From: a virus
Lineage: Duplodnaviria > Caudoviricetes
Reading direction: 5' to 3' (one strand)
Length of the DNA: 61,717 bases
IMG/VR virus record: IMGVR_UViG_3300037634_001516
Location: 1 to 61,717 of that record
Shown: positions 1,653 through 54,122 of the stretch, piece after piece
Position numbering within the stretch: the first letter of the stretch is position 1
Layout: every line of letters starts with the position of its first letter
The notes under the pieces: generated by a model
Databases searched by the model: none
What the model saw: only the letters and a program-made list of their open reading frames with translations
What the model was told of the DNA's origin: nothing
Translations under genes and position numbers: made by a program

Positions 1653-1653
1653 C

Positions 1654-2285: not shown

Positions 2286-2297
2286 GAGGAAAATACT

Positions 2298-3111: not shown

Positions 3112-3170
3112 TCGAAACGCCTACGGGCGTCAGTGGGAATTAGTCTACCCACTCTGATGAGACTGACTGA
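3110..3170 (+). ncRNA. Type II hammerhead ribozyme (copy 2)
   Basis: AGTC-GAAA-CGCC(TACG)GGCG-TC^-AGTGGG(AATTAGTCTA)CCCACT-CTGATGA-GACT; loop TTAGTC pairs with GACTGA; compensatory changes relative to copy 1. Confidence 0.92.
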
Positions 3171-3188
3171 ACTAATAGGAATCGTACT

Positions 3189-3605: not shown

Positions 3606-3620
3606 ACTAGGAGAAGTGCA

Positions 3621-4082
3621 ATGCAAGTAAAGAAATGGAGAAGTGTGTATGACCGTTTCAAAGATCTTCCTAAAGCTAGAACTACTTTTGTCAAATGTGA
3701 ATATATAGCTAATGCTATGAATGAAACTAATGACTGTACCGTAAAGGCAGTAGCGATAGCTGGTAAGATCCCCTATGAGACTGCGCATGAACTTATGCAA
3801 CTGTCAGGTAGGAAGCCAAGAGAAGGAACATTCCCAGGAATAGTCAGTTTGGCATTCCGAAGGATTGGAGCTAAGGAAAAGAGAGTCTGCACTATGGCTC
3901 TTCAGAAAAAGAACAACGGAGTAGGTTTAACTGCCAATAACATTGTTCGATTACTGAATAAGCAGCGCTCTTACATAGCGTATACCATTGACCACGTACT
4001 CACTATCCGTAACGGAAAAGTTGAAGATTGGTCTGCAGGCAGGCGTCATAAGATACTGTCAGTGCATGAAATATCACGTTAA
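3621..4082 (+). CDS. Hypothetical protein with putative Cys/His peptidase-like motifs, paralog B
   Basis: NDCTVKAVA...DHVLTI...GKVEDWS. Confidence 0.7.
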   Translation: MQVKKWRSVYDRFKDLPKARTTFVKCEYIANAMNETNDCTVKAVAIAGKIPYETAHELMQLSGRKPREGTFPGIVSLAFRRIGAKEKRVCTMALQKKNNGVGLTANNIVRLLNKQRSYIAYTIDHVLTIRNGKVEDWSAGRRHKILSVHEISR

Positions 4083-4101
4083 AATTATTGAGGAATAAAC
4101 T

Positions 4102-4263
4102 ATGAAAAACTATATGAAGAAGTCTATGAAAACCGCTACAATCAACTCTGTTCGTGAAGAGTTCGCTACCAGTACTACTGTATACAACTCTAAACCAGTT
4201 GCTGCAGCTCGTCGAGAAGCACGTGCGAATAAGAACAAACGTCGTGCTTTCTATCAATCCTGA
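4102..4263 (+). CDS. Small basic protein
   Basis: GAGGA RBS; MKNYMKKSMK...RREARANKNKRRAFYQS, below the ORF-track cutoff. Confidence 0.55.
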   Translation: MKNYMKKSMKTATINSVREEFATSTTVYNSKPVAAARREARANKNKRRAFYQS

Positions 4264-4306
4264 CCCTTAACTCAACTAAACCAAATGGACCAACTAGGAG
4301 AAATCT

Positions 4307-6937: not shown

Positions 6938-6981
6938 TTAATATGCCAAGGATGGCACAAACTTAAACTTGAGGAATTACT

Positions 6982-7284
6982 ATGAAGACTATTAAAATCA
7001 TGTGTATGGATGATCTAGCCCTAACTCAGAAAGAAGTTAACGCTTACTGGGAAGAAGGCTATCGACCTTTTGAAATCTATGTTTACAACGACGAACCTGT
7101 TGACTACCATTGTGGTCGAGATTATAGCCACAATCCCATTGAAGCTGGACAGATAGCTGGTTGGGACATCTATCACGTATTTGCTAAGCGTGATGAACTG
7201 ACAGCTGACTACCCTTACTTCGATATAATCATCACTACGTCTGTAGTAGGCGATTGCACTGAAATGTTAATAATTGAGGAATAA
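6982..7284 (+). CDS. Hypothetical protein
   Basis: GAGGA RBS, 100 aa. Confidence 0.7.
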   Translation: MKTIKIMCMDDLALTQKEVNAYWEEGYRPFEIYVYNDEPVDYHCGRDYSHNPIEAGQIAGWDIYHVFAKRDELTADYPYFDIIITTSVVGDCTEMLIIEE

Positions 7285-7288
7285 TCCG

Positions 7289-7894
7289 ATGAATGAAGCA
7301 CCTATTAAGACTGTAAAAGCATACAAGCTATTTCGTTTATATCCTAAGCAAGCCGGAAAGCTGTTTCCTCTTTTTGTAGATGCCAAGACTCCAGTAGCAA
7401 CAGGAGAATGGGTAGATGCGATAATGGGGGAGCAGGTAGAAGGAAGTGTGAAGGTGAAATCCAAGATAGGCCCGTTAGCTTTTCGACCAGGATGGCACGC
7501 TGGAGATCTACCTGTAGCAACCCATATAGGTTCTAAATCAGATAGCAAACTCAAAGAAGTAGACACTCGACCTAACGATCAAGTGTGGGCTGAAGTTGAG
7601 TTTCCAGCAGATGTCGATTGGCAGAAAGAAGCTAACAGTCGTGCTAGGATAAAGAAGGACGGGACTCCTGAAGCTAGGTCTGCCCACATAACGGATCAAC
7701 TACCTGTAGGTGGTTTCTACCGTTATAAAACAAACTCTAACATGCTCGGGAATTGGCTTATTGCTGGCTCCATGAAAGTGAATAGAGTTTTAACTGATGC
7801 CGAAGTAGAAGCTATTAATGCTGAAGCTGGTGTGTCTGATCTTCCAAGAGCTAAGTCTGTATTGCTCGACCCTATCCATCTAACCCCTATGTAG
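7289..7894 (+). CDS. Hypothetical protein (motif-rich globular domain)
   Basis: GAGGA RBS; motifs AYKLFR, LAFRPGWH, QVWAEVE, GFYRYKTN. Confidence 0.75.
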   Translation: MNEAPIKTVKAYKLFRLYPKQAGKLFPLFVDAKTPVATGEWVDAIMGEQVEGSVKVKSKIGPLAFRPGWHAGDLPVATHIGSKSDSKLKEVDTRPNDQVWAEVEFPADVDWQKEANSRARIKKDGTPEARSAHITDQLPVGGFYRYKTNSNMLGNWLIAGSMKVNRVLTDAEVEAINAEAGVSDLPRAKSVLLDPIHLTPM

Positions 7895-7906
7895 TGTCTC
7901 TAAAAC

Positions 7907-7960
7907 TCCCCCTCTCAGCATCTTTCCCTCACGGGTTAGGTGTTGGGAGGGGGATTTTTT
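7907..7960 (+). terminator. Rho-independent terminator ending the early/RNAP block
   Basis: TCCCCCTCTCAGCA...TGTTGGGAGGGGGA stem followed by TTTTTT. Confidence 0.75.
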
Positions 7961-8027
7961 ATGGCCGACCTCTATGCGCCCTAGGGCTTGTAGGGGTCTT
8001 GGTTCGGGGACTGCTTGCTTACTTTAT

Positions 8028-8050
8028 TCAAAACACTGTATTAAGATACA
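8028..8050 (+). promoter_or_regulatory. Putative phage RNAP promoter, copy 2
   Basis: TCAAAACACTGTATTAAGATACA. Confidence 0.7.
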
Positions 8051-8226
8051 TTGCGATTCAGGTCTTGCGGCAGCTGCTTTTTTAAATACTTTTAAAGTAT
8101 TCTTTTAAGTACTCTCTGCGTATATGTATATATCTTTATCTTCTCTGATATTTATTAACAGAGTTAATACGTTAACATGTATGTCAAAGTAGTGTCACAT
8201 ATACCTGACGTTGTCTTTGTTAAGAA

Positions 8227-8250
8227 TCAAAACACTGTATTATGATACAA
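8227..8250 (+). promoter_or_regulatory. Putative phage RNAP promoter, copy 3
   Basis: TCAAAACACTGTATTATGATACAA upstream of primase-helicase. Confidence 0.8.
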
Positions 8251-8369
8251 CCCGAATCACACAAGGAGGCATACTATGAAACTATTATCTTACACCCTGA
8301 CCGCTGCAGTACTGACAGGTTTGTTCCTTGTGCAATACTCTTTACTGACTGTTATTTTAGGAGGCTGAT

Positions 8370-10097
8370 ATGGGGATTTCTGTAGGTAATTTTCCTTGTG
8401 ACGAATGCGGGAGCAGGGACAACAATGGGGTTTACAAAGCTGAAGACGGCACTTACAACAGCCATTGCTTTGGTTGTGACCACAATAACCGATTTTGTGA
8501 CTCTGAGGGTCATGCTATCGATTCCCCAAAAACTAATTCTAACACTTATCAGGAGACGAATATGGATGACCGTTTAAGTTTTGAAGATGTCTGTGAGCTT
8601 CCTGTCATAGGTGATAAAAATCGTAGGATTTATAAGTCCATTGGGCAACTGTACGGGCTTAGAGGCGCTAAGGTCAATTCAGACGACTGGACACATCAGT
8701 ACTACCCATTTCACAAGGATGGTAAACTGGTGGGCTTTCAAGAACGAACAGTCGCTACCAAGGAGTTTAAGTCCATTGGCTACGGCAAGCAAGACATTGA
8801 TCTTCAAGGTATGGAGATCTGGCCTAATGGCGGTAGCCGTTACTTGGTCATCACTGAGGGATTCTTAGACGCTTTAGCAGCACAACAAATGTTAACAGGC
8901 AAGGTTGCAGATCGTGACAAGCGTTTTGTTATCGTATCTCTCCCTAATGGCTCTAACGCAAACCACATACTTAAGAATCTGAAGACCCGAGAGTGGGTTG
9001 AGAGCTTCGAGAAAGTAGTGTTAATGTTAGACCAAGACAAGGCTGGGATGGATTGCGCAAAGAAGATAGCTGTAGGTCTGCGACCAGGATTAGTCCACAT
9101 AGCCGAGTTCTCTGAGAAAGATCCCTGCGATATGTTAGGTTCTGATAAAGATACAGAGTTCAAGCGTTCTTTCTGGGATGCCAAGAAGTATTCCCCTGCT
9201 GATATCGTGACCGCTGCTAGTGTGCGTGATATCCTGTCAGAAGAGAATATGGTTGAATCTCTACCTTATCCGGATTTTGCTGCTGAGTTGAACATGGGTT
9301 GGTTCGGTAAGCGCAAAGGTGAGATCTCTCTGTTTGCTGCTGGCACTGGTCTGGGCAAATCTTCTTTCTTCAAGGAGGATATGTTCCATATCATGACTAC
9401 AACTGAAGAAAAGATAGGCATTGTTTCTTTAGAGGAATCTACTCGAGACATACTAATGGGCATGCAAAGTTTGTACCTCAATAAGCGAGTCAACTTACCT
9501 AACGTAGAGCTAACCAAGGAAGAAGAAGAGAAATCTCTAAAGTGGATAGAAGAATCGTGTGGAGACCGTTTTGTCATGCTTGACCACCAAGGCTCAAGTG
9601 TTGGCGAAGACTTGATGCAGAAGATACGTTACCTTATCGATATAGGTTGCGGATATATCTACATTGACCACATTACTCTTGCTACTGCAGGTAGTGAAAA
9701 TACAAACAAGGCAATCGATGACTTCATGGACGCTCTTTTGAGTCTGTGTAAGAAAAAGAATGCACCTTGGTTCGGAGTAGTGTCACACCTACGTAAAACT
9801 TCTGAAGGCAAGTCTTTCGAAGAAGGTGCGGTACCTACAATGGATGATCTCAAGGGATCTGGGAGTATCAAGCAGATAGCATTCGACGTAATTATGTTTG
9901 CACGTAATATGAATGCTAAAACAGAAGCAGTGCGAAACCGTACAGACATTTGGGTGAAGAAGTCTCGTAGTACAGGTAAAACTGGGCCAGCTGGCAGCTA
10001 TACTTTTGACCCTACTACTGGTCGTCTCAATTATGTTGATCGTGAGAAGATCAATGTGGAAGATGACGACGAGCCTAATGAATTTCAAATGGCTTAA
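8370..10097 (+). CDS. DNA primase-helicase (T7 gp4-like)
   Basis: N-terminal Zn finger CDECG...CFGC; TOPRIM ITEGFLD and DQD; Walker A AGTGLGKS; IDHI; VSHLRK; DLKGSGSIKQ. Confidence 0.96.
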   Translation: MGISVGNFPCDECGSRDNNGVYKAEDGTYNSHCFGCDHNNRFCDSEGHAIDSPKTNSNTYQETNMDDRLSFEDVCELPVIGDKNRRIYKSIGQLYGLRGAKVNSDDWTHQYYPFHKDGKLVGFQERTVATKEFKSIGYGKQDIDLQGMEIWPNGGSRYLVITEGFLDALAAQQMLTGKVADRDKRFVIVSLPNGSNANHILKNLKTREWVESFEKVVLMLDQDKAGMDCAKKIAVGLRPGLVHIAEFSEKDPCDMLGSDKDTEFKRSFWDAKKYSPADIVTAASVRDILSEENMVESLPYPDFAAELNMGWFGKRKGEISLFAAGTGLGKSSFFKEDMFHIMTTTEEKIGIVSLEESTRDILMGMQSLYLNKRVNLPNVELTKEEEEKSLKWIEESCGDRFVMLDHQGSSVGEDLMQKIRYLIDIGCGYIYIDHITLATAGSENTNKAIDDFMDALLSLCKKKNAPWFGVVSHLRKTSEGKSFEEGAVPTMDDLKGSGSIKQIAFDVIMFARNMNAKTEAVRNRTDIWVKKSRSTGKTGPAGSYTFDPTTGRLNYVDREKINVEDDDEPNEFQMA

Positions 10098-38338: not shown

Positions 38339-38362
38339 TCAAAACACTGTATTATGAATAAA
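38339..38362 (+). promoter_or_regulatory. Putative phage RNAP promoter, copy 8
   Basis: TCAAAACACTGTATTATGAATAAA. Confidence 0.8.
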
Positions 38363-39472: not shown

Positions 39473-40117
39473 ATGCAGTGGCGCAAAGATACAAGTGATA
39501 ATGTGACTAAAGAAGATCTGCAAAGACAACTAGAAAAGATGACTAAGCAGCTTCAACAGCACGGAATCGAAAACGAAGATGACCTTTGCTTTATCGAAAG
39601 TGATGGCCACAAGAACTATGATAAAAACCCTAACGGTAAGTACAAGAGAGGCAAATCTCCTGCACTCAAGAAGCAACAACAGATGTGGAAAGAAGATCCA
39701 AGTACACGTCCAAGAGGTGGCAGACCAAAGGGTTCAAAGAACAAGAAGACACTAAGACAAGAGCTGGTAGATAACGGTATGTTAACTCCTGCAGAATTCC
39801 TTGCTAGTGTGATGAATGATGAAGAACAGAACATGAAGATACGGCTCAGAGCAGCTGAATCAGCAGCACCTTACTATGACGCTAAACTGTCCTCTGTAGA
39901 GATGCACACTGATGACGATAACATATCTCCATTCAACATTCTACTGGCCAATAATGTGGTCGGTCAGAATGCCCTAGAGGGCGGTCTTACCATGTGCAAC
40001 GTGTGCACTAATGCACCTTGTAAATGTGATGAAATAAAAGCACTAGAGGATGCCGCAAATGAAGGCTATCTAGAGTACCAAGAGGATGAAGACTATGACG
40101 GTAATGACGACAAATAG
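39473..40117 (+). CDS. Probable terminase small subunit
   Basis: GGRPKGSKNKKT; TPAEFL..VM; RLRAAESAAPYYDAKL; upstream of TerL. Confidence 0.7.
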   Translation: MQWRKDTSDNVTKEDLQRQLEKMTKQLQQHGIENEDDLCFIESDGHKNYDKNPNGKYKRGKSPALKKQQQMWKEDPSTRPRGGRPKGSKNKKTLRQELVDNGMLTPAEFLASVMNDEEQNMKIRLRAAESAAPYYDAKLSSVEMHTDDDNISPFNILLANNVVGQNALEGGLTMCNVCTNAPCKCDEIKALEDAANEGYLEYQEDEDYDGNDDK

Positions 40118-41464: not shown

Positions 41465-42718
41465 ATGGATATTAAACTCACTGGCCCACAGACTAGTGTT
41501 TTCTCTGACACAACACGTTTCCGTGTTTGCTGTGCAGGAAGACGTTTCGGCAAGTCGTTCCTATCTGGAGCTGAACTACTGAATGCTGCTATTGGTGTCG
41601 ACAAAAGAACAGGTAAGCAACTGTCCAAGCAGACGGTTGTATACATAGCCCCTACGTTTGCAATGGCCAAACAGATCATGTGGGTATGGCTAAAAGAATT
41701 CGCTCCAAAGAATTATATCAAGAAGACCAACGAGTCTGATATGCTGATGGAGTTCAAGAATGGATCTACGATCTATTTAAAATCCGCAGAGAACTACGAT
41801 TCTCTACGTGGGCTTTCTCTGTCATTCGTCGTTTTAGACGAGGTGGCAGATATTGCCCCAGAGTGTTGGTCACTAGTAGTACGACCTGCTCTCTCTGACC
41901 AAGAAGGTGACGCTCTATTTATCGGAACACCTAAAGGTACTAATCATTTCTATGACTGGTGGCTTCAAGGCCAAGGTAGTAGATCTACTTGGAAGTCTTG
42001 GTCTTACACTACCCTCCAAGGAGGTAACGTAAGTGACGAAGAGATCGAAGAAGCTAAGCAAGATTTATCTCCAAGAGACTTTCAACAAGAGTACATGGGT
42101 AGCTTCGAAGCATTGAGCAACAGAGTTGTCGATATGTTTAACAGAGACCTCAATGTTATGCCTGTAGGAGATATGGGTGGAGAGATACTAATTGGGATGG
42201 ACTTTAACGTTTCCCCAATGACAGCTGTAGTAGGGAGTAGAGTAGGAGACCAGTTACATATCTGGAAAGAATACTACCAACAGAACTCCAACACTCGTTA
42301 TCTTATGGATGCGATTGTGAAGGATTTCCCTGATAGAGAGATAACAGTGTTTCCTGACCCAGCTGGTAAAGCGAGGAAGACTTCCGCGATTGGCGGCGAG
42401 ACCGATCATACGATCATTAGATCTTATGGCGCTAAAGTTGTTTCCCCTAGTAAGTCTCCACACGTGGCAGACGGACTGAACAATTTGAACACGATGATGT
42501 GCAACGGTAAGATGGAGAGGAGAATCCTCATAGACCCTAGCTGTACAAAACTAATCAAGTCACTAGATACTTGGACGTACAACGAAGACGAGAAAGATTC
42601 GCGACCTGACAAGAAGTCAGGGAATGATCACTTGCCAGATGCATTGAAATATTTGGTTTGGATGGAGTTCAGGATGAACGGTGGCCAAGCACGGAACATA
42701 CAGATAACAGGATTTTAA
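41465..42718 (+). CDS. Terminase large subunit
   Basis: AGRRFGKS Walker A; YIAPT; LRG; VVLDE; IGTPKG; GMDFN; DHLPDALKY. Confidence 0.96.
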   Translation: MDIKLTGPQTSVFSDTTRFRVCCAGRRFGKSFLSGAELLNAAIGVDKRTGKQLSKQTVVYIAPTFAMAKQIMWVWLKEFAPKNYIKKTNESDMLMEFKNGSTIYLKSAENYDSLRGLSLSFVVLDEVADIAPECWSLVVRPALSDQEGDALFIGTPKGTNHFYDWWLQGQGSRSTWKSWSYTTLQGGNVSDEEIEEAKQDLSPRDFQQEYMGSFEALSNRVVDMFNRDLNVMPVGDMGGEILIGMDFNVSPMTAVVGSRVGDQLHIWKEYYQQNSNTRYLMDAIVKDFPDREITVFPDPAGKARKTSAIGGETDHTIIRSYGAKVVSPSKSPHVADGLNNLNTMMCNGKMERRILIDPSCTKLIKSLDTWTYNEDEKDSRPDKKSGNDHLPDALKYLVWMEFRMNGGQARNIQITGF

Positions 42719-43111: not shown

Positions 43112-44719
43112 ATGCCATCAATGATAAGTACAAAACACCCCTTGCTGGTAGATAAGCTCGATCAGATTAGGAGAGCAAGAGATGCTCACAAAGGCACTGA
43201 TGCTATCAAGTGCTCGAACCATCCAAGTGGATTACCTCTAGATGAAGAGTACCTCCCAAGATTAGGTGGACAAACTTTAGAAGACTATGAAGCTTACAAG
43301 CGTAGGGCTGTATTCTACGCAGCGATGAACAGAACTGTTGTTGCATTAGTAGGTGCGCTATGCCGCAAGCCTGCAGAAGTCGACAATGGAGATGCGTTGA
43401 AAGCTTTTATGGAAGACGTCACAGGAACAGGTGTCTGTTTCGATGAATTCCTGAAGAGAATTGAAACTGAGATTCTTACTTCTGGCAGAGTCATCGTTTG
43501 TGTTGACAGAATGGATACAGAAGACAGCAACAGACCTTACCTTATCTGGTACAAGTCTGAAGAGTGTACTAATTGGTTCACTACTAAAGCTGCTAACTTC
43601 GCACACACTTTAAATAATGTAGTTTTCAAAGAGTCGTATTACGAGCCTTGTGAAGACAACAAGTACAAGCAAGAAGTTCGAGACCAGTATCGCGAATACG
43701 TCCTCGAAGATAACGGGAGGGTTACGGTAAACGTACACCGTCCAGCTAACAAGAGCAATGGCTCCACACCTTCAGAAATGGAAGAGTACATCATACACGA
43801 ATCTCGTGTTCTGACTAACCGAGGCAAAGACTTAGGTTTCTTGCCAGTTAGCATGATTGTGTCTTCAGGCGAGGACTACGAAGTACCAACCCCACCTCTA
43901 CTAGATTTGGTAGATGTTAACTTGGCCCACTACCGTAACAGCGCTGATTTCGAACACGGTCTACACTGGACTGCGTTACCGACTCCTTGGTTCTCTGGAC
44001 TAACTGACACCACTTCTAATATAGCTATTGGATCCGGTGCTGCTATTATCCTACCTGACCCAAGTGCATCTGCTGGATTCTTAGAATTCACAGGTTCTGG
44101 TTTGACACAAATCTCTGGTGCTATGAAGCACAAAGAGCAACTGATGTCTACACTAGGAGCGAGAATGCTAGGTTCTGGTATGGATCAATCTACTAGTGCT
44201 GAAGTTGTAAGGATTAACGTTTCAGGAGAGATCTCTGCGTTGATTAATATAGCTAAGTCTATAGGAAGATGTGTTAGCCGTACAATGAGAATGGTTGCGA
44301 TGTGGGAGAACGTTAAAGGTTCTGACAGCATCAATGTGTACATAAACGAAGATTACGTAGACACTAAGTTGGCAGCAGCCGACATCAACGCATTGCTTGG
44401 AGCATTCCAAGGAGGAGCATTGTCTCTCGACACTCTTCTGTGGAACTTGGAGCAAGGTGAACGTATACCTGTCGGACGCTCTGTTGAAGAAGAGCTGGCC
44501 CTAATCGAAGTAGGAGCACAACAAAGTGCCGAAGCTGAGATGGGAGAAGGAGGAGAGCCTCTCCCTGAAGAAGTCTCATTCCTCGACGAGGAAGAAAGCA
44601 CTGGAGACCTCATGCAAGATTTCTTCCAAGCTAACCACGGATTCGATGACGAGTACATGGAAGAGCAAGAGGAACAAAAGCGTTACGAGGATTCTCTAGA
44701 TCCAGACGAAGAGCTATAA
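43112..44719 (+). CDS. Portal protein (DUF4055-type)
   Basis: YLPRL...YEAYKRRAVFY; PPLLDLVDVNLAHYRNSAD; HWTALP; position after TerL. Confidence 0.92.
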   Translation: MPSMISTKHPLLVDKLDQIRRARDAHKGTDAIKCSNHPSGLPLDEEYLPRLGGQTLEDYEAYKRRAVFYAAMNRTVVALVGALCRKPAEVDNGDALKAFMEDVTGTGVCFDEFLKRIETEILTSGRVIVCVDRMDTEDSNRPYLIWYKSEECTNWFTTKAANFAHTLNNVVFKESYYEPCEDNKYKQEVRDQYREYVLEDNGRVTVNVHRPANKSNGSTPSEMEEYIIHESRVLTNRGKDLGFLPVSMIVSSGEDYEVPTPPLLDLVDVNLAHYRNSADFEHGLHWTALPTPWFSGLTDTTSNIAIGSGAAIILPDPSASAGFLEFTGSGLTQISGAMKHKEQLMSTLGARMLGSGMDQSTSAEVVRINVSGEISALINIAKSIGRCVSRTMRMVAMWENVKGSDSINVYINEDYVDTKLAAADINALLGAFQGGALSLDTLLWNLEQGERIPVGRSVEEELALIEVGAQQSAEAEMGEGGEPLPEEVSFLDEEESTGDLMQDFFQANHGFDDEYMEEQEEQKRYEDSLDPDEEL

Positions 44720-44776: not shown

Positions 44777-46705
44777 ATGTGGGGGCTAGATAGTATTAAA
44801 GAAGGTCTGAAAGATGGCCTCAAGGCAACTAAGAAAGCTGCAAAAGAGTTTGCTCCTGCAGCAATGGCTTCTGAGTTGAACGTGTTCGAGAAAGCCCGAC
44901 TTGAGCTGAGAAGAACTCGGAATTCTATAAAGAGAAAACAGAGAGACTTGAAAACTGACATCATAACCGATAATCCTTGGAGAGCATTGGTAGGTCGTAA
45001 GAATATTATCGACCAAATGTTAGACGATCCAGCAGACTGGGCTGAGAGTAAAGAAGGACACGCTCTATTGAACGTAGCTTACTCTATTGAACTCGATGCA
45101 GTAGAAGCTCTTACCAAAGGAACAAGAGTTGCAGAGAAAGGTGCAGGAATTGCAGAAGAAGCTGCAGAAGCTTTTGTCCAAGAAGTTCACTCTAAGAAAG
45201 TAGCACTGACAGCCATCGCTCGTCGTATGCTAGACAATCCTGACGAGAATACTTCTAAAGCTGCGTCTTTTATGGCTGACGTTAACTACTTTGTAGAAGA
45301 ACACGGCCCTGACTTCATGAAAGCAGCCAAGACTCCTCCACCTAAGGCAGACGCCAACAGGCTGACACGAGCTGTCAAAGAGAGTGGGTTGGGTGATCTG
45401 CTTATGAAGAAAGCGGAAGAAGCTAAGGCTGCGCCAAGCAAAGTTATGGAAAATGTTAAGAAGAAGTCGGAAGAGTTCAAGTCTGAAGCACAAGAAGTTT
45501 TAGGAATGGAGCCTAGCGTTTTTGATAAAATGTTTTCAGCATTCGACTCCGCAGCAATCGCTGATGTAGTCAGTGAGAAAGTTGATCAAGTTAAGAAAGC
45601 TGCCAAAGAACTTACAAGAGAGAAGACTTTTGAAGAGAAGATGCTAGAAATGGATCAAGATTTTCAAGATGCTAAAGACAAAGCTCAACTTGATGCTCAC
45701 ATTGCACAGAGTGGTATGGGATTCGTCGAAGAGATGGTATTCCGTGCAGCTGTAATGCTTCCAGACGAAGCTCTTGACTTTATTGACAAGAAGATAAACG
45801 GCGACCCAGAGCAGATGATGAAAGATTCTGCAGCCACCATCAGAAAGCACTCCCATGAGGGAATGCTGGAAGCTATGTTAAAGGAAGAATCAGGAAGACC
45901 AGCTATATTGACTGAGAAGCCTGAGCGTTCTTTCTTCGGAGGACAACCTGACTTTGAGATATCCCCTCGGGAAATAAAAGATCTAAAGAATGAAGCGATC
46001 CAAGCTATCTTAGATGATCCTGAAGTGATGAAGGTTATCAAAGAGGCTACCAGTCACCCTAACTTGCAGAACAGAGAACGCGTTGATAAGGGAGCCATGA
46101 CTGAAGGCTTTACTGATCCAGAGTCTACTATGATGGAACAATCACTGGGTGCTACTATCGGAATGATCTCTGATGCTGCAGCTCCTGCGTTGCGAGCAAA
46201 GATAGCTGAGATAGCTTCAAACAAGTACAACTTGGTTGATGCTGGAGAGCTGAAAGCTATGCAAGGTTCTCTGAACAAAGCACTGGCTGCTGCTACTAAG
46301 GACGTAGTTAAGGCTGGCTATGAAGCAAACAATATCGGACTCAAAGGCAGTTTCGACAGAGCGATGAACAAAGCCGACCTGAGTAACGTTATGCGAAATG
46401 CTTCTATAGCATCTACAGCTTACACCACTGCTACAGAGAAGCAACACGGTTTGGGCAAATCTGAGAGATTGTTCGCTGGGCCGAAGGATAACAAGAATGC
46501 CATGACTGAGTCTGAAGGCGCTTGGGATTCTTTCACTGACGAACTAGCTGGTGACAAATCCTCCAGAGTAATGGAATCCTCTAATGCAACTTTAGATAAG
46601 CTGTCTGACGAAGAGATCACTGCTCGTGGACTGATCCGCATCAAGGGTTATACGAACAAGAGTGGCGTCAAGATCAAGACCCACTACCGCAAGATCAAGA
46701 AGTAA
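44777..46705 (+). CDS. Large helical protein in the head module, possible internal virion protein
   Basis: 642 aa, A/E/K-rich; C-terminal IKGYTNKSGVKIKTHYR basic motif. Confidence 0.7.
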   Translation: MWGLDSIKEGLKDGLKATKKAAKEFAPAAMASELNVFEKARLELRRTRNSIKRKQRDLKTDIITDNPWRALVGRKNIIDQMLDDPADWAESKEGHALLNVAYSIELDAVEALTKGTRVAEKGAGIAEEAAEAFVQEVHSKKVALTAIARRMLDNPDENTSKAASFMADVNYFVEEHGPDFMKAAKTPPPKADANRLTRAVKESGLGDLLMKKAEEAKAAPSKVMENVKKKSEEFKSEAQEVLGMEPSVFDKMFSAFDSAAIADVVSEKVDQVKKAAKELTREKTFEEKMLEMDQDFQDAKDKAQLDAHIAQSGMGFVEEMVFRAAVMLPDEALDFIDKKINGDPEQMMKDSAATIRKHSHEGMLEAMLKEESGRPAILTEKPERSFFGGQPDFEISPREIKDLKNEAIQAILDDPEVMKVIKEATSHPNLQNRERVDKGAMTEGFTDPESTMMEQSLGATIGMISDAAAPALRAKIAEIASNKYNLVDAGELKAMQGSLNKALAAATKDVVKAGYEANNIGLKGSFDRAMNKADLSNVMRNASIASTAYTTATEKQHGLGKSERLFAGPKDNKNAMTESEGAWDSFTDELAGDKSSRVMESSNATLDKLSDEEITARGLIRIKGYTNKSGVKIKTHYRKIKK

Positions 46706-46788: not shown

Positions 46789-49700
46789 ATGGCTAAGAAA
46801 GACTTGAAGAAAGTAATATCTGCCCGTAAGAAACACCTCAAAGGTGTAAAGCAAAAGAAAGTTGTAGACGAATTGTTGGATGAGTTGACTCTCCACGCGC
46901 TACAGCTACAACAAATAGCGAATAATCAAGAAGACGTACTTAGGAAGTACTACAAAGAACTTTCTGATGAGCTTCTAAGCAAAGTAAACAAGTACGACTT
47001 CCGATCGGCTCGAAGCAACAAGCTGAAAGCGAAACAACTTAGGTCTCTAATGAAAGAAGGCTCCCAAGCCATAGAGACATCCCATAAATCTATACAAAAA
47101 GCAGTTCGAGATGGACTGATATCTGTAGGAGATTTAGAAACCCAGTTTGCGGTAGGCTCTTTGAATAAAGCCGTAACCGGAACTGGTAGAATAAAGATAG
47201 CGAGCGAGACTGTATCTCCTAAGAAGATAAGCTCTATCGCAGACAACTTAATAGTAGAAGGTGTTCCCCAATCTGAGGTTTGGAAGCGCCAGAGCAAGCG
47301 TGTACAGGAAAAGTTCAAAGATGCTGTACGAATGTCTTGGCAAAACAATGAGGACATAGAAACCCTCTCTGGACGCATAAGAGGAACTGCTGCTAATAAG
47401 TATAAAGATGGTATAATGAATATCTCGAGGAATCACGCTAACACTTTAGCTCGTACCTCAATTTCATCTGTCGCTAACAGGACTCGGGAAGAGACCTACT
47501 TAGCAAACTCAGATGTCATCAAAGGTGTTCAGTTCTTGGCACACTTAGACTCAAACACTACTGACATATGCAGAGCTTACTCTGGAGACCAGTGGGTATT
47601 TGAGGAAGGTGGCTATAGAAACATTGAAGGTGGCCACGAATTCAGACAGCCTCCTCTTCACTTCAACTGTAGATCGACTATGCTACCGTTGATGAAGACT
47701 AGCGCTGAACTGAAGGTAGCTGCACCTAAGAAATGGGAGAAGATACCAAAGGATAAACGAAAGACTGTCGGTAAAGTCCTCGGCCCTAAAGTTTGTCACA
47801 GCCCCTGTACGTATAGGGATGCTGACGAGTGGCTGAAGTCTCAAGACAGTAAAGTGCGAAAGCAAGTACTAGGTAGCGATAAAGCAGTAGCCCTATGGGA
47901 AGCTGGCAAGGTAGCAATGGGGAGATTCGTCACTCAGAAAGGTAGAGCCAGAACTCCTGAAGAAGTTGCCAACCTATATGCTAAGCAAGACCTAGTTCCT
48001 GACACAGTACTACAATTGAAATCAACAGATAAGTTTAAAGCTAACACTGGAGCTTCTAAAGTAGCAAAGAAGAGAGTTGAACAAATTGAGAAAGGTAAGT
48101 TCCTTACTCTAGAAGGACGACTACAAACAGGCAAGACTGTATCTAAATCTGACAGGGATATGTTAGGTTACATACTGAAGAATGCCGACGCTAGTGAGTT
48201 CGAGTATTCCAACGACTACGCTCCTAAAGATTTCAAGGATTTCTTAGGAAACAAAGGAAAGAGATTAGCTTTTTACAACCACACAGCCAAGAGATTCGAG
48301 AGGATTGAAGGACTACGCAAGGGAGATCTTACAACAAGGTCAACTGCCAAGCTGGCCGAGATGGAGAGCATAGTTTATGACGAGATCATAAGTAAGATTT
48401 CTAAAGACGCTAAGATAAGTTCAGCTAACCGAGAGGTTCTGTTGGAGATGTTTGAAGAGTCTAAAGATATAGTAGGAACTCGACGCAGTTTGCCTATGAT
48501 AGAATCTTTGCTCACCGTGGCCAGAAGTAAGAACTTCTCTTACATTGATGGAGAGTTCGTAGGCTATATGAACAACTCTTTGAAGAACTCTGTGAATTCT
48601 TATTTCAGCAGACTTGTGCGCGCAGAAGCTCGGAACACTAACAGTGTTGAGAAGCTGAAGCGTTATGCGTTAGTCTCTGAGACTGCAAAGAATTCTGCTA
48701 GATCTTCTATAGTTAAAGATAGGAAAGGAATGCTTGAGAAAGCTCCATCTTTGGCTGAAGCGAATAAGTATAAGAAGCGTATAGCTACTATTGGGAAGAG
48801 AAAGCTGAGATCCTTCAAAGGAGACACAGCTACTGCACTCAATGTAGACTTAGGGTTCAACGCCCAAGACACTCTATCTCTCTACTTCGGCCTACTACAG
48901 GACGGAGTGAGAATGAGACCTTGGAGTATCACGAAGCTCGGCAAGAGAACTCAGTCGAAAGAAGTACAATTTATAATCTCTAGGACTAATCCAGGAGATA
49001 AGGTAGTACTCACCGACGCGATACTAAACAACTCTATGTTTGCTAAGTACAAAGACCGCATATGGTCAGGCAGAGGATTACCTCCAGAACTCAGAGACGA
49101 GCTAGGACAACACCTCCAAGATGCCCAAATGTACCAAGATGCCCGACAGTATATGAAAGGAAGGATCAATGTACCTGATACTGAGATACCTGATCTCTAT
49201 ATACGCAAGCAGCTAGACAACTTTCTACAAGACCCTGCTGGGCCAGTGAACCTGTCCTTTGTTGCTTCTAAGATCGACAAACTGTACGATATGAATGCAG
49301 TGAAGAGAGCTGCAGAAAGAGCAAGGATAGCTAGCAGAGCCGAGAAGGAACTTGGTGGTGGGAGCGCATTCAGCAGGTTGCTTAGAAGAGAGAAAGAAAT
49401 AACAAGAAAAATCGATGTCAGAGAAACTAGGCGTAAGGTTGCAGACGATTGGGAACGCCAGTCTGATGGCCCTATCCTGCGAGCCACTAACGATAACATA
49501 GTGCAGAGCATTGACAACGATTACCGCAAGCCATCGTCTCCTTTTTACAAAGAAGCGAACTTGCTAAGAAAAGATGACCCTTTAGAGTTAGCACGACTTA
49601 CCAACGAAGTTGCGTTGGCGTCTACTCAGAAAGGGGCAATGTACATCCAAGCTGTGAAGAGCTTAGGAGAGCGATACTACTATAAGTTCCACAAAGTACT

Positions 49701-51828
49701 AGACGCAGATGAAGATGATGCGATTCGGATAGGTCACTACCTGATGAACTCGCTAGTCAAAACTGGAAACGTCAAGAGACTCAAGTCTGTACAGAGAGTG
49801 AAGTCTGACTTCCAATTTAAAGAAGTTACCTCTTGGACTCTGAAAGCTGACAACCCTAAATGGGAGAGACTGTTACTTGCAAACAAGAAGAACTACGACG
49901 TAGATGGCTTACCTAGATTCGAAGCTCCGAAGTACGGCAGAGGCACACTGCTCAATGGTATCTATGAAGATACTGGAGAAGCTGCTATCCGTGGTTCCAA
50001 GAAGGAATGGGTAGAACTTCAATACCGTGACGGAAGATCTAAGGCATCACTTGATAACTTAGATACAGAAGCAGGAACAGCAATCCGAGTTAACGGTTAC
50101 ATATATAATGTGTTGACCAAACTCCGGAGCAATGGAGATGACTTTATACCATCAGCTCCCAAACTGAAGACAGACGTAATTAGTCGAAGCAAATATGATA
50201 GCTTCAATAGAGCTATGGTAACTGCCAGAGGTTTGAGAGATCAGAAGTTCTACAATGGTATGAGTAATGATAAGTACGGTCGTACCTATTCGAACGCAAC
50301 AGCACTGCAATGGCAAGGAGACGACTTCAACCGAGGTCTGATGCTCTTTGATAACGCAGTTGAGTTGGGTAAGGATGGACTAGACCATTACAAGCAAGCG
50401 TTCATGAACCTTGCAGGGTTTGATAAGATACCTCTCAGGGAGAGGAACAAACTCTGGGATTTAATGGACGAAGAATTAATACTCAAGACCGCAGCTGACC
50501 CATTCGGGAATGACTGGTGGAGAACTAAGACCAATTGGATTGAGACAGGTGTGTTCAAGAATCTTAGAGGAATCAATGTTAAATACAATATTCCAAAAGG
50601 TGAAGGCGGCATCATGGACGTATTAGAAGAAGTTAAGAAACTAGCTGTAGCTGCTGACCCATCAGGAGAAGGAGCAGTTCAGTTCTTAGCTATGATCCAA
50701 GAAAGGGCTGAGATGATTAAGTGGGTGAGATCTGGAAAGAACATTAAGAAATTCCAGAGCAGGATCCCTATACAAATAGATGGTACAACAAACGTATTAC
50801 AGCACATTGCTGCTATCTCTCGAGACAAGTCTACTGCAGCAGCAGTAAATATGACTGTCCGTAATGGTGTGGCTGATGCTTATATCAAAACGAGAGACGC
50901 TGTGGAGGCACTAGCTCAGACCAAGTACAAGGATGATCCAATTGTCCAGAAGTACGTGTTCGGAGGAATGTCCCATAGCAAGAGACGTAAGTCTGTGAAG
51001 AAAGGCTTGATGACTAGTCAGTATAACGCTGGCCCATCAACACTAGGAGAATCCTATTTTGAAGCACTCAAAGGTACAGCTGTGAACGGAGAATTAATAT
51101 TCGACAACGCAACTGCTGGAGAGAAGTTAAGAATAGGAAGGCTCATACTTGAAGCATCTGAGAACGAGTTCCCTGAAGGGTTCAGGACAAGAACAGTACT
51201 CAACCAGTTGGCAGAAGCTCACACTTTGTCAGGCAAAGTAGACATAGATCTAAAGACATTTAACATAGGAAACCCATTCCGTCAGTCGTACTTAAAGACT
51301 CAAACTAGACAGGTTGAGCTTGACGACGGTCTTGGTGGTAAGATAAATGTAGAAGTTCGAGTCGAGACAGATCTACCTGACTGGTCTAAACAAGAACGAG
51401 CATTCGCACCTAACATCATCCACGCATTTGATGCAGAGCATAAGTCTCTCGTAGTAAATGCAATGGCTAAATACGGTGTGAAAGACTTCAGCATGATTCA
51501 CGATAGTTTCGGGGCACACGCTGGCAATATGTCTCTAATGAAGAAAGCTACTAAACAAGCTTTCGTAGATATGTACAAGAAGGAAAATATTCTTGAGAAA
51601 CTCTACAATCACTTTAAGTCGCAAGGCGTAGTGATGAAGAAGTTTGCAAGAGACGAATTTGGTCGGAAGATCAAAGTGACTAAGAAGACGGTTCTTTCCA
51701 AAGGACAATCCACACAAGAAATTGATGGACGAATTTGGGTAGTAGAGAACATTGACAAGAAAGATATACGAGAGCTTGGAGATTACGATTTCCGTGACTT
51801 CGAAAAACTCGACTATTTCTTTCATTAA
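46789..51828 (+). CDS. MuF (head morphogenesis) domain fused to a T7-type RNA polymerase (RNAP2)
   Basis: MuF: LART, FLAHLDSNTTDIC, PPLHFNCRS. RNAP: DKYGRTY, PIQIDGTTNVLQH, RKSVKKGLMTSQY, APNIIHAFD, MIHDSFG, C-terminal YFFH. Confidence 0.9.
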   Translation: MAKKDLKKVISARKKHLKGVKQKKVVDELLDELTLHALQLQQIANNQEDVLRKYYKELSDELLSKVNKYDFRSARSNKLKAKQLRSLMKEGSQAIETSHKSIQKAVRDGLISVGDLETQFAVGSLNKAVTGTGRIKIASETVSPKKISSIADNLIVEGVPQSEVWKRQSKRVQEKFKDAVRMSWQNNEDIETLSGRIRGTAANKYKDGIMNISRNHANTLARTSISSVANRTREETYLANSDVIKGVQFLAHLDSNTTDICRAYSGDQWVFEEGGYRNIEGGHEFRQPPLHFNCRSTMLPLMKTSAELKVAAPKKWEKIPKDKRKTVGKVLGPKVCHSPCTYRDADEWLKSQDSKVRKQVLGSDKAVALWEAGKVAMGRFVTQKGRARTPEEVANLYAKQDLVPDTVLQLKSTDKFKANTGASKVAKKRVEQIEKGKFLTLEGRLQTGKTVSKSDRDMLGYILKNADASEFEYSNDYAPKDFKDFLGNKGKRLAFYNHTAKRFERIEGLRKGDLTTRSTAKLAEMESIVYDEIISKISKDAKISSANREVLLEMFEESKDIVGTRRSLPMIESLLTVARSKNFSYIDGEFVGYMNNSLKNSVNSYFSRLVRAEARNTNSVEKLKRYALVSETAKNSARSSIVKDRKGMLEKAPSLAEANKYKKRIATIGKRKLRSFKGDTATALNVDLGFNAQDTLSLYFGLLQDGVRMRPWSITKLGKRTQSKEVQFIISRTNPGDKVVLTDAILNNSMFAKYKDRIWSGRGLPPELRDELGQHLQDAQMYQDARQYMKGRINVPDTEIPDLYIRKQLDNFLQDPAGPVNLSFVASKIDKLYDMNAVKRAAERARIASRAEKELGGGSAFSRLLRREKEITRKIDVRETRRKVADDWERQSDGPILRATNDNIVQSIDNDYRKPSSPFYKEANLLRKDDPLELARLTNEVALASTQKGAMYIQAVKSLGERYYYKFHKVLDADEDDAIRIGHYLMNSLVKTGNVKRLKSVQRVKSDFQFKEVTSWTLKADNPKWERLLLANKKNYDVDGLPRFEAPKYGRGTLLNGIYEDTGEAAIRGSKKEWVELQYRDGRSKASLDNLDTEAGTAIRVNGYIYNVLTKLRSNGDDFIPSAPKLKTDVISRSKYDSFNRAMVTARGLRDQKFYNGMSNDKYGRTYSNATALQWQGDDFNRGLMLFDNAVELGKDGLDHYKQAFMNLAGFDKIPLRERNKLWDLMDEELILKTAADPFGNDWWRTKTNWIETGVFKNLRGINVKYNIPKGEGGIMDVLEEVKKLAVAADPSGEGAVQFLAMIQERAEMIKWVRSGKNIKKFQSRIPIQIDGTTNVLQHIAAISRDKSTAAAVNMTVRNGVADAYIKTRDAVEALAQTKYKDDPIVQKYVFGGMSHSKRRKSVKKGLMTSQYNAGPSTLGESYFEALKGTAVNGELIFDNATAGEKLRIGRLILEASENEFPEGFRTRTVLNQLAEAHTLSGKVDIDLKTFNIGNPFRQSYLKTQTRQVELDDGLGGKINVEVRVETDLPDWSKQERAFAPNIIHAFDAEHKSLVVNAMAKYGVKDFSMIHDSFGAHAGNMSLMKKATKQAFVDMYKKENILEKLYNHFKSQGVVMKKFARDEFGRKIKVTKKTVLSKGQSTQEIDGRIWVVENIDKKDIRELGDYDFRDFEKLDYFFH

Positions 51829-51868: not shown

Positions 51869-52660
51869 ATGGCAATTAAATATACATATAATGATGTTTC
51901 AGAAATTCCAGAAGGACTAGAGTCCTTGTACACAGAAAACGATTCTGGTGTTTACACTATCGCTGTTGAAGGTATGACAGAGAAAGGTAAGCTAGACGAG
52001 TTCCGTGAGAACAACATCGATTTGCGTAAGCAAGTTGAAGAATACAACAACAGCATGCAAGAGCTACAGAATAAGTTCTCTGGTGTTGATCTGGATAAGT
52101 GGAAAGAGTTCCAAGAGAGAGAATCGGAATTGGCTGAACAGCAGCGCAGAATTGATGAGCAAGAGCTTATCGAGAAAGGCGATGTTGAGACATTGATTCA
52201 ACGTCGAGTTGAGGAAGTGTTGCAAGCTAAAGACAAAGAGTTAGGCACTATTAGAGGAGATCACGATAGCAAAGTGAATGATCTTCAGGGCCAACTCTCT
52301 AACTATGAGAGCCAATTTAGCTCTCTAGTGATTGACAGAGAGTTAGCATCTCTAGCAGCAGACCGTGGAGTAGCAGCATCAGCTGTGGAAGACGTTCTGA
52401 CTAGAGGTCGCGCAACTTTCAAGGTTGAAGATGGTCGCCCTGTCGCTTTTGACAGAGACGGTTTGAAAATGTACAGTGAAGATGCGATCACTCCGCTTTC
52501 CGTTGGAGAATGGTTAGACGGACTAAGTGAATCTGCACCACACCTTTTCAATCGCTCAACAGGGGCTGGCGCAGGTCAACCGTCAGAAACTCCTGCCCCT
52601 AATCGCCAAGATGGCAATGCCATCGACAGCATACTAGCAGGGCTTAGGACTTTGCGTTAA
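51869..52660 (+). CDS. Capsid scaffolding protein
   Basis: IPEGLESLY; EFRENNI; coiled coil; APHLF..S.GAG; precedes MCP. Confidence 0.85.
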   Translation: MAIKYTYNDVSEIPEGLESLYTENDSGVYTIAVEGMTEKGKLDEFRENNIDLRKQVEEYNNSMQELQNKFSGVDLDKWKEFQERESELAEQQRRIDEQELIEKGDVETLIQRRVEEVLQAKDKELGTIRGDHDSKVNDLQGQLSNYESQFSSLVIDRELASLAADRGVAASAVEDVLTRGRATFKVEDGRPVAFDRDGLKMYSEDAITPLSVGEWLDGLSESAPHLFNRSTGAGAGQPSETPAPNRQDGNAIDSILAGLRTLR

Positions 52661-52766: not shown

Positions 52767-54122
52767 ATGGCCATTTCAGGATTAACTCTAGGCACACAAC
52801 GTGACCTAACAAACGACATGCTGGTTAAAGGTATTATCGATTCTATCGTTACTGTGAACCAGTTCTATCAGCACCTTCCATTTAAAGGTATCCAAGGTAA
52901 CGCTTTGGCATACAACCGTGAAGCTGTTGACAAAGACCAACAAGACCTAGTAAGCGTATTGCGTACTGGCGTTTCTGGTATCAACAAAGATCAACAGACT
53001 TTCACTCGCCACTCTACTGAGCTGACCACCATCATTGGTGATGCACAGGTTAATGGTTTGATTCAAGCTGTTGGTTCTGACTACAACGATGCTACTGCTG
53101 TACAAGTTGCTGCTAAAGCTAAAGGCGTTGGCCGTAAGTTTATGGATCTGATGATCAACGGTCAGGAAGGTTCTGCTACACGTGGAGTTGTTAACTCTAT
53201 GGCTCTGTCTGGAACTCCAGCTTTGACTGTTTCTTCTGCTACTACTGCAGCTGATTTCTACAACACTGTAATCCAAGGCGCTGTTCTTTCTAGTGCTTCT
53301 AGTGTTGTTGCTTCTTACGACATCAACGGTTCTGGTACTAAGGGCAAGCTGTTCACAGTTGCTAACTTAGTTGCTGATATGTCTGCAGCTGCCGCTACCA
53401 ACACTGGTATGGTAAACGTTATCATGAATGCCCAAGTATTCTCTGGCCCATTCGCTTCTGGTACTCCTACTGCTGACGCTATCACTTTGACTGCTGCTGG
53501 TGTTGCTTTGTTCAACGCTGCCTTGCGTCTAGTTAACGGCCCATTAGGTTTCGACGGTCTTGATCGTTTCGTGACTAACGCTGGTCGTACTGACACTTCT
53601 GCTGCTATCGATATGACTGCTGCTGGTGCTGGCGACGCTGTTCTAGCTCGTCTGGACGAATACATCGACTTGATCCACGACAAAGATGGCATGGTTGACT
53701 ACATGATGATGAACTCTGCTGGCGTACGTAAGTACAGCCAAGCTCTACGTTTGTCTAACGCTGCTGGTTTCGATGACGTTATGGAAGTTAAAGATTCTTC
53801 TGGTGGTGTTATGAAGGTTCAATCTTACCGTGGTGTTCCAATTTACCGCAACGACTTCGTACAGTCTACTTTGGCTGAGCAAGCTTCTGTGGCTGGTGGT
53901 AACGCTGGCGCTGGTTCTTCTGCTGCCCACGTATTCGTTGGTACTGTAGATGACGGTTCTTTCTCTCACGGTATCTGTGGTCTTACTGCCCAGAACTCTT
54001 CTGGTATCCAAGTTGCTAAGCTTGGTGCTCGTGAAGATGCTGACGCTGATATTACTCGCGTTAAGTGGTACTGTGGTTTGGCTAACTTCTCTGAGTTAGG
54101 TATTTATCGCGGCCAGATCTAA
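52767..54122 (+). CDS. Major capsid protein with internal insertion
   Basis: LPFKGIQGNALAYNRE; IIGDAQV; FDGL; YRGVPIYRND; TRVKWYCGLA; highly biased codon usage. Confidence 0.9.
   Translation: MAISGLTLGTQRDLTNDMLVKGIIDSIVTVNQFYQHLPFKGIQGNALAYNREAVDKDQQDLVSVLRTGVSGINKDQQTFTRHSTELTTIIGDAQVNGLIQAVGSDYNDATAVQVAAKAKGVGRKFMDLMINGQEGSATRGVVNSMALSGTPALTVSSATTAADFYNTVIQGAVLSSASSVVASYDINGSGTKGKLFTVANLVADMSAAAATNTGMVNVIMNAQVFSGPFASGTPTADAITLTAAGVALFNAALRLVNGPLGFDGLDRFVTNAGRTDTSAAIDMTAAGAGDAVLARLDEYIDLIHDKDGMVDYMMMNSAGVRKYSQALRLSNAAGFDDVMEVKDSSGGVMKVQSYRGVPIYRNDFVQSTLAEQASVAGGNAGAGSSAAHVFVGTVDDGSFSHGICGLTAQNSSGIQVAKLGAREDADADITRVKWYCGLANFSELGIYRGQI

Follow-up and report, generated by a model that had tools for sequence, protein, structure and literature searches.

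A MuF head-morphogenesis protein fused to a T7-type RNA polymerase in an uncultured marine siphovirus: a candidate virion RNA polymerase

Results

The stretch of DNA analyzed here (the window) is the whole of the 61,717-bp IMG/VR record IMGVR_UViG_3300037634_001516, which comes from an uncultured marine phage (Duplodnaviria; Caudoviricetes). On its + strand, positions 46789..51828 hold an open reading frame (ORF) that begins with ATG and encodes a protein of 1679 amino acids (aa) and ~190 kDa, in which a MuF-type head protein is joined to a T7-type RNA polymerase (RNAP). Three modules were delimited within this fusion gene: a MuF/SPP1 gp7-like head-morphogenesis module (aa 1–404; 46789..48000), a helical middle module (aa 405–880; 48001..49428) and a T7/mitochondrial-type single-subunit RNA polymerase module (aa 881–1679; 49429..51825), all on the + strand.

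The initial annotation of this DNA had reported the 1679-aa ORF, its N-terminal MuF domain and its C-terminal T7-type polymerase, and all three were borne out by the searches described below. Every motif that it quoted was found, namely HLDSNTTDIC...PPLHFNCRS (aa 252–296), IDGTT (aa 1330–1334), RRKSVKKGLMTSQY (aa 1399–1412), IHDS (aa 1570–1573) and the C-terminal YFFH. In Pfam, PF04233 (Phage_Mu_F) matched aa 188–298 with 31.4 bits (cut-off 29.6) over profile positions 15–111 of 112, and PF00940 (RNA_pol) matched aa 1294–1679 with 178.3 bits (cut-off 22; E 3e-52). No peptidase or other Pfam domain was found besides these two, and RPOL_N (PF14700) was not detected by the Pfam sequence search of the fusion protein. 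Among the PHROGs, the head-morphogenesis family phrog_241 covered aa 22–556 (E 7e-70) and the RNA polymerase family phrog_414 covered aa 1133–1613 (E 9e-79).

A tblastn search retrieved 'head morphogenesis' genes of many siphoviruses, which aligned with aa 27–450 at 25–29% identity. An AlphaFold2 (AF2) model of aa 1–900 had a mean predicted local distance difference test score (pLDDT) of 77.8 and a predicted template modeling score (pTM) of 0.43. Its Foldseek comparison with BFVD gave 68 matches at E≤1e-3, with template modeling (TM) scores up to 0.75 when normalized by target; the named proteins among the best 50 of the 68 were minor capsid or head morphogenesis proteins and one protein annotated as an ADP-ribosyltransferase, the 1192-aa protein of phage Xp12. 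The fold search of the same model against the PDB returned 0 matches at E≤1e-3. The predicted complex of the portal protein with MuF (aa 1–410) scored 0.00, which carries no weight either way.

Two sister contigs (L125 and L126) have the same order of the head module, and their major capsid protein (MCP) is 59% identical to that of the window. Their MuF is a stand-alone protein of 375 and 373 aa, respectively, which is 48% identical to the fusion protein over aa 23–404 and then ends, with the scaffold gene lying directly 3'. The domain boundary was therefore placed at about residue 404, and residues 405–1679 (1275 residues) were regarded as a C-terminal addition to an ordinary MuF; judged by this comparison, they are cargo added onto a normal MuF protein. 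The fusion gene lies in the head module near the portal gene, from which one variable ORF separates it, and this order is the same in both sister contigs.

The middle module was modeled as all-helical, with pLDDT of ~80–94 across most of aa 420–850. It had no Pfam match and no PDB fold match at E≤1e-3 over aa 405–880, and the ESM Atlas gave no usable match for aa 410–880. Many of its residues are invariant among the relatives, so it seems too conserved for a passive linker.

The AF2 model of aa 881–1679 (pLDDT 85.9, pTM 0.83) was aligned by Foldseek with full-length yeast and human mitochondrial RNAPs and T7 RNAP over 821–945 columns (E 5e-29 to ~1e-23, TM 0.57–0.71); for the yeast and T7 enzymes, E was 5e-29 to 1e-25 and TM 0.63–0.71. 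The two structure comparisons that the initial annotation had called for thus pointed to head morphogenesis models for the N-terminal part and to T7/mitochondrial RNAP for the C-terminal part. By sequence, the best relatives of solved structure in a phmmer search of the PDB were yeast mitochondrial RNAP (E 4e-22) and T7 RNAP (E 4e-21). The window protein and five family members, down to 36% identity, were aligned with T7 RNAP, and the equivalents of T7 D421, R425, D537, R627, K631, M635, Y639, H784, H811 and D812 were identical in all six; the residues themselves were checked on the T7 sequence (L192). D1331, D1572, R1400, K1404, Y1412 (the ribose-discriminating tyrosine) and H1545 of the fusion protein are invariant or near-invariant among 20 relatives. 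A beta-hairpin stands at the position of the T7 specificity loop (T7 735–775), its sequence differing between members, and the C-terminus reads YFFH in the fusion protein versus FAFA in T7. Altogether, the sequence and the model indicate a polymerase module that is complete and apparently active. No conserved internal methionine or start for a separately translated polymerase was found among the relatives.

The sole family-specific change in the polymerase core is an N where T7 has G640, beside the nucleotide-discriminating tyrosine. This substitution could be taken as a sign that the polymerase module is dead, or that it now serves as cargo with a DNA-binding or structural role; such an ORF might likewise arise from a misassembly or a spurious frameshift. 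We find these explanations hardly credible, since the checked catalytic residues are all kept down to 36–38% identity, the polymerase core is the best-conserved part of the protein (53% mean identity to 15 distant members) and the uninterrupted ORF recurs across many independent assemblies, one 90%-identity cluster having 20 members. An assembly artefact was rejected on the strength of 21 collinear relatives and of the identical protein on another contig.

These relatives came from a search of 5.8 billion clustered proteins, in response to the suggestion in the initial annotation that databases be searched for the MuF plus phage RNAP architecture. It gave 22 matches, 21 of them collinear metagenomic relatives of 1293–1730 aa with 38–82% identity; the remaining one shares the polymerase domain and is otherwise unrelated. 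Both Pfam domains were called in 16 of the 21 relatives, PF00940 only in four and PF04233 only in one, a truncated member. One relative lacking the Pfam MuF call is collinear from residue 26 at 36% identity and keeps the PLHFxCRS motif. None of the ten clusters examined carried a functional name. A HMMER search with the polymerase module against 1.84 billion representatives gave 5072 matches at E≤1e-3. The top 11 (202–1504 bits) comprised seven proteins of 1293–1724 aa with the module at the C-terminus and four short pieces, whose residue 1 or 2 aligns inside the module, as fits genes cut at a contig edge. Below them the score falls to 139 bits, and the matches are ordinary polymerases of ~550–980 aa, mostly ~800 aa, at ~30% identity. 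Since all seven members of at least 1293 aa carry the module at their C-terminus, this polymerase clade appears to be always fused among its long members.

In comparisons with four relatives of ~80% identity, the ratio of nonsynonymous to synonymous substitution rates (dN/dS) was 0.05–0.07 for MuF, 0.07–0.11 for the middle module and 0.06–0.09 for the polymerase, values that are rough because dS exceeded 1. With dN/dS of ~0.04–0.11 across its three parts and relatives down to 38% identity, the fusion is marked as old and under purifying selection.

The initial annotation knew of no characterized example, and none was found here. Among 50,697 phage records, 0 of 3111 matches covered at least 80% of the whole protein and 0 of 1007 covered at least 80% of its first 1100 residues; two peptide patterns revealed no relative in 185,579 species-representative prokaryote genomes. 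The literature consulted describes no MuF-fused polymerase, and the supplementary tables of PMC5576092 and PMC5512222, which list MuF architectures, could hold one.

The window encodes a second polymerase, RNAP1 (4307..6937, + strand), a stand-alone T7-like RNA polymerase of 876 aa whose gene belongs to the early region. The whole protein is covered by phrog_414 (E 1e-187); it contains PF00940 and PF14700 and is 30% identical to the polymerases of Autographiviridae over 99–100% of its length. The fused polymerase had been described as very divergent from RNAP1, which agrees with the 25% identity over 472 aa that we obtained. In a tree of 52 rows, seven fused polymerases formed one clade (SH-aLRT 100) with a stem of 2.85 changes per site; it lies outside the group of T7, a mitochondrial-like sequence and the RNAP1 clade, and is not sister to RNAP1. 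Because the tree was searched quickly, has long branches and was rooted at its midpoint, the placement of the clade is unsure and only its monophyly is firm. A recent duplication of RNAP1 was rejected as the source of the fused polymerase, the two not grouping together in the tree.

The polymerase module matched 2146 of the phage records, and only three of these matches covered at least 80% of it; among those listed at this coverage were the free 732-aa Naomviridae polymerases of DSS3_PM1 and DSS3_VP1, with 23.6% identity. No polymerase of Schitoviridae was among the matches listed of the 2146 records, and BLASTP of aa 881–1679 against aa 998–2103 of N4 gp50 (the mini-vRNAP) gave a best E of 4.1. 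Membership of the N4-type virion RNAPs was rejected, given the absence of sequence similarity, the length of 1679 aa rather than ~3500 aa, the MuF N-terminus and the absence of a peptidase domain.

All ORFs of at least 150 aa in the window lie on the + strand save one, which sits within the tape-measure ORF. The left part runs from small early ORFs through RNAP1 to a primase-helicase (8370..10097), a family A DNA polymerase, a ribonucleotide reductase and two tRNA genes; by PHROG annotation this replication module is T7-like. The adjacent tRNA-Arg(TCT) and tRNA-Gly(TCC) genes occupy 23598-23755, in the replication and nucleotide-metabolism region. The late block begins with a small terminase candidate (39473..40117), followed by the terminase large subunit terL (41465..42718, +; phrog_2, E 1e-49), the portal protein (43112..44719, +; phrog_145, E 7e-97; PF13264), an ORF of 642 aa, the fusion gene, the scaffolding protein (51869..52660, +; phrog_206, E 1e-36; PF06810) and the MCP (52767..54122, +; phrog_212, E 3e-38), which is 45–50% identical to siphovirus MCPs. 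Further 3' lie genes for a head-tail adaptor, head closure, tail completion, a tail terminator, a lambda-type tail tube and a tape measure. The placement of the fusion gene between portal and scaffold, as initially annotated, is right on the downstream side, where the scaffold gene comes next; upstream, it does not follow the portal gene directly.

The intervening ORF (44777..46705, +) encodes an Ala/Lys/Glu-rich protein with no PHROG match and no Pfam match over the cut-off. It is variable, being ~250 aa long and 30% identical in two relatives of 80% identity (L007 and L010) and replaced by a 134-aa ORF in L125. It may encode a further internal or ejected head protein.

A stem of 12 bp with a loop of 6 nt and no U-run after it lies at 46719-46748 (+), 40 nt 5' of the start of the fusion gene (fold −24.5 kcal/mol, z −2.6). 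Processing or attenuation of the RNA at this stem might hold the fusion protein at a low copy number.

A 44-kb relative (G001) extends the module order with a distal tail protein (Dit) and a J-like fiber, and no sheath was seen in it. The claim that the phage is a siphovirus was therefore sustained: by its lambda-type tail tube and tape measure, and by the Dit and J-like fiber of this relative, it is one. Within the tape measure gene, three overlapping copies of a 159-nt repeat, 74–85% alike and spaced by 123 nt, occupy 59301-59705.

The last ORF, that of the tape measure, is open at the 3' end of the window, contigs from other runs extend leftwards beyond position 1 and an 83,025-bp contig carries the identical fusion protein. 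The record is thus a fragment, and the 83,025-bp contig puts the genome at at least ~83 kb. CheckV estimated the record as 100% complete, yet tail-tip, fiber and lysis genes are absent and the tape measure ORF is cut by the 3' end. Relatives of the fusion also sit on ENA contigs of 62–169 kb. All 16 rows of sequencing-run matches were DNA contigs from marine, seawater or coded-organism samples, with no RNA sample among them, and their starts and ends did not pile up anywhere.

A conserved motif with the core AAACACTGTATTATGA had 11 matches at up to three mismatches versus 0.87 expected. Eight + strand copies, none with more than one mismatch, are intergenic or border on an intergenic gap, at 2009, 8031, 8230, 10404, 14993, 21731, 27993 and 38342. 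The copy at 38342..38357 (+) is the only one ahead of the late operon of packaging, head and tail genes, the fusion gene included, and that at 2009..2024 (+) lies inside the early region. The motif is kept in relatives of ~80% identity, including the equivalent of the 38342 copy (L010 and L018) and after RNAP1. We infer that it is the promoter of RNAP1. In 8000-8260, 1.1 kb 3' of RNAP1 and immediately ahead of the primase-helicase, the copies at 8031 and 8230 flank an AT-rich stretch of ~150 nt, a layout that resembles the primary replication origin of T7. In 1..9000, 16 sigma-70-like sites were found versus 16.4 expected, none better than 9/12.

The search for the left end of the genome was pursued in several ways. 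The first early ORF had no relatives in the viral contig collection, a tail-fiber search gave 79 loci, of which the new ones were all without the promoter motif, and metagenomic relatives of RNAP1 extend at most 2.6 kb upstream of that gene.

The early region 1-4300 is mosaic between strains. Contigs from other marine runs skip 308 nt (90->399), 160 nt (2544->2705), 433–436 nt (3165/3168->3602) and, beyond RNAP1, 311 nt (6988->7300). Two 57-nt repeats, 86% alike, stand right after early ORFs at 1096-1152 and 3110-3166 (+), and a third copy was found in a relative (L029, 1362-1416). Measured against the hammerhead consensus, they contain the core CUGAUGA ... GAAA and GUC as the cleavage triplet, stem II being the open one in this permutation, and the minimum free energy (MFE) structure is a three-way junction. 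The three copies have UAAGGG/CCCUUA, AGUGGG/CCCACU and AACAGG/CCUGUU as stem I; it differs between copies at 3–5 of 6 pairs, all changes are compensatory and complementarity is kept throughout. The loop of stem I can pair with bases just past stem II, and this pairing co-varies. The gapped hammerhead pattern had 2 matches versus 0.00 expected. No hammerhead family of Rfam matched the 57-nt repeats at E≤1, the only match being a weak one to Ocean-VII on the opposite strand (E 0.023). In the other-run contigs, insertions and deletions that affect early ORFs begin right at the hammerhead-like elements, the skip of 433–436 nt starting right after the second of them.

Between the small terminase candidate and terL, ~460 nt are non-coding, in two stretches (40353-40660 and 41053-41207). 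Three 25-nt repeats stand in tandem within it (40479-40546), alongside other repeats rich in TACTAA, and the region may serve for recognition in packaging or as an origin.

As an alternative to ejection, the fusion protein might act in the cell in which it is made, MuF having its usual part in head morphogenesis at the portal and the tethered polymerase working late, for example by linking the transcription of concatemeric DNA to the onset of packaging, or as a dedicated late transcriptase. Such a role would suit a gene that lies in the late operon beside terminase and portal, a genome in which middle genes and the late operon share one promoter motif and a distinct early class was not seen, and a repeat-rich non-coding region between the terminase genes; T7 RNA polymerase itself has a reported role in concatemer processing and packaging. 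However, RNAP1 and the conserved promoter at 38342 already explain late transcription, and the covalent link to a protein of the procapsid interior would take the enzyme out of the cytoplasm. Moreover, the sister phages with the same head module use a short MuF without polymerase cargo, so head assembly in itself does not require the polymerase. We consider a late intracellular role unlikely.

Discussion

The gene at 46789..51828 probably encodes a virion RNA polymerase that enters the head by way of MuF, is ejected along with the DNA and then transcribes the first genes, among them RNAP1. Gene position and the biology of MuF proteins lead us to infer its encapsidation, ejection, early transcription and independence of the host polymerase.

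The following course of events would fit the data. Late in infection, the structural operon would be transcribed from the single 38342 promoter, probably by RNAP1, and the 190-kDa fusion protein would be made alongside the portal, scaffold and capsid proteins. Its MuF module (aa 1–404) would bind the portal and bring a few copies into the interior of the procapsid, as SPP1 gp7 does. In the next infection, the protein would exit the capsid with the DNA or just before it, through the long non-contractile tail and at least partly unfolded, and would refold in the cytoplasm. The C-terminal T7-type polymerase would then transcribe pre-early or early genes, RNAP1 among them, starting at a single promoter or a small number of promoters close to the end that enters first, after which RNAP1 would take over from its 8–9 conserved promoter copies.

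Several observations speak for virion packaging and ejection. A full MuF stands at the canonical place of the head module, in the order terL–portal–X–MuF–scaffold–MCP. The gene lies in the late operon behind one promoter copy, and it is hard to see what a polymerase made at that stage would do for the cell that makes it. RNAP1 cannot produce the first mRNA of its own gene, and sigma-70-like sites did not exceed chance. The cargo nature of residues 405–1679, the apparently active polymerase and the long-maintained fusion point the same way, and cascades that begin with a virion polymerase have precedents in N4 and P23-45. Delivery of cargo to the host has been proposed for C-terminal fusions of MuF, and SPP1 gp7 supports the initiation of infection, according to the relevant sections of these papers (PMC6316719, PMC5576092, PMC5512222).

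Other points weigh against such a role. A search of direct repeats and an 11-mer scan of 30 intergenic stretches revealed no second promoter family, although promoters of the N4 type, which are hairpins, were not systematically sought. The spacer before RNAP1 is short and, in an alignment of five relatives, holds no conserved element, and the sole repeated intergenic motif family also has one copy in the early region (2009). Given the missing second motif, the unconserved spacer and the chance-level sigma-70 sites, RNAP1 appears to be co-transcribed with the early ORFs, from the 2009 copy or, likelier for the first round, from a site upstream of the window. The left end of the window is an assembly break, so the place where a promoter of a virion polymerase is expected lies outside it. 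The sigma-70 consensus scanned may differ from that of the marine host, for which GC content and the MuF neighbors very tentatively suggest a Vibrio- or Alteromonas-like gammaproteobacterium. A protein of 190 kDa would need to pass through a long siphovirus tail. Lastly, delivery of MuF cargo into cells is itself proposed and not demonstrated in the accounts given by PMC5576092 and PMC6316719. Altogether, the cascade of two polymerases put forward in the initial annotation retains its basis in a conserved fusion within a siphovirus head module and a canonical early RNAP1, but one promoter family was found and not two.

Packaging and ejection would be equally expected if the main task of the polymerase were to pull the genome in by transcribing its entering end, or to prime replication at an origin. 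Architecture and context are the same for such a task as for early transcription, the promoter copies at 8031 and 8230 flank the AT-rich stretch upstream of the primase-helicase, and transcription-driven genome entry is known for T7. However, the phage has a primase-helicase of its own (8370..10097), and genome entry or priming would be compatible with early mRNA synthesis from the same promoters, from which the sequence does not separate it. As the main task, we hold it to be distinctly unlikely and prefer an ejected polymerase that transcribes the first genes.

Three kinds of known phage systems resemble the proposed one in part. The first is N4 (Schitoviridae), whose gp50 is, like the protein described here, a single-subunit phage polymerase within a much larger, late-expressed virion protein, as the passages on gp50 in PMC4496689, PMC13434306 and PMC5512222 describe it. 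The N4 virion polymerase is ejected and transcribes early genes that encode a second phage polymerase (PMC4496689 and PMC13434306, in their accounts of N4 infection). Unlike the 1679-aa fusion protein, gp50 has ~3500 aa, and its injection and encapsidation depend on N- and C-terminal regions of its own (PMC5512222, in the part concerned with N4), whereas MuF is used here. N4 is also a podovirus and the phage studied here a siphovirus.

The second system, Thermus phage P23-45, is a siphovirus whose virion polymerase, gp96, is likewise joined to a structural protein that exits the virion. According to the portions of PMC10770324 that treat gp96, the carrier is the tape measure, and gp96 transcribes pre-early genes including that of a second, non-virion polymerase, gp64. 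In contrast to the T7-type enzymes considered here, the P23-45 polymerases are of the two-barrel (cellular) type, and they are paralogues of each other, whereas the two polymerases of the present phage do not group in the tree. The carriers differ as well, the tape measure occupying the tail lumen and MuF the capsid interior at the portal. The idea put forward in the initial annotation thus has a precedent in P23-45 as regards a fused virion polymerase followed by a non-virion one, although no MuF-fused polymerase is described in the literature consulted.

The third comparison is with MuF polymorphic toxins and polyvalent proteins, which, in the sections of PMC5512222, PMC5576092 and PMC6316719 that deal with them, likewise have an N-terminal MuF near the portal gene and a swappable C-terminal enzymatic domain. 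Variability of the C-terminus was also found here, closely related MuF proteins occurring with and without the C-terminal 1275 aa. The cargoes given in those sections are ADP-ribosyltransferases, nucleases, RelA/SpoT and other toxins or host-modifying enzymes, whereas here the cargo is a nucleic-acid polymerase, and its ~1275 aa are far above typical toxin domains. MuF toxins are reported from temperate phages in the main text of PMC5576092; the present genome, in contrast, has a T7-like replication set. The word 'polymerase' occurs 0 times in that main text, and the polyvalent-protein survey, in its part on virion polymerases, finds N4-like ones only in N4-like phages (PMC5512222).

The polymerase module itself shares its fold, catalytic residues, specificity loop and C-terminal foot with T7 RNAP and with the stand-alone T7-like polymerases of Autographiviridae and Naomviridae. 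These are free proteins, that of DSS3_VP1 being encoded among early genes, whereas the polymerase described here is fused and sits on a long separate branch. Judged by these comparisons, both halves of the protein and the general strategy were already known, and what is new is their combination, the independent polymerase lineage and the route through the capsid interior of a siphovirus.

With rather less than even confidence, we extend this proposal to the whole infection cycle. In this extended form, a clade of marine siphoviruses would run all of its transcription on two phage T7-type polymerases without the host enzyme; the one carried by MuF would be ejected and would make pre-early RNAs, the mRNA of the second polymerase among them, that are cut by type II hammerhead ribozymes of the early region. 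If so, this would be a virion RNA polymerase with an origin independent of N4, and the first MuF cargo required to act in the cytoplasm of a newly infected cell.

Whatever its exact task, the clade offers compact (~800 aa), deeply divergent T7-like polymerases with putative promoters of their own, and the early region supplies candidate natural self-cleaving ribozymes. Virion RNAPs are known as a few unrelated solutions, in the literature consulted those of N4, phiKZ-type phages, crAss-like phages and P23-45, and each has been instructive about the passage of large proteins across the cell envelope and about the ways in which phages become independent of host transcription. If a T7-type enzyme is loaded via MuF, one more such solution has evolved independently, and has done so in the most common phage morphotype. 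Such a system would also help to show whether MuF cargo reaches the cytoplasm of the infected cell, as a polymerase would be useless elsewhere.

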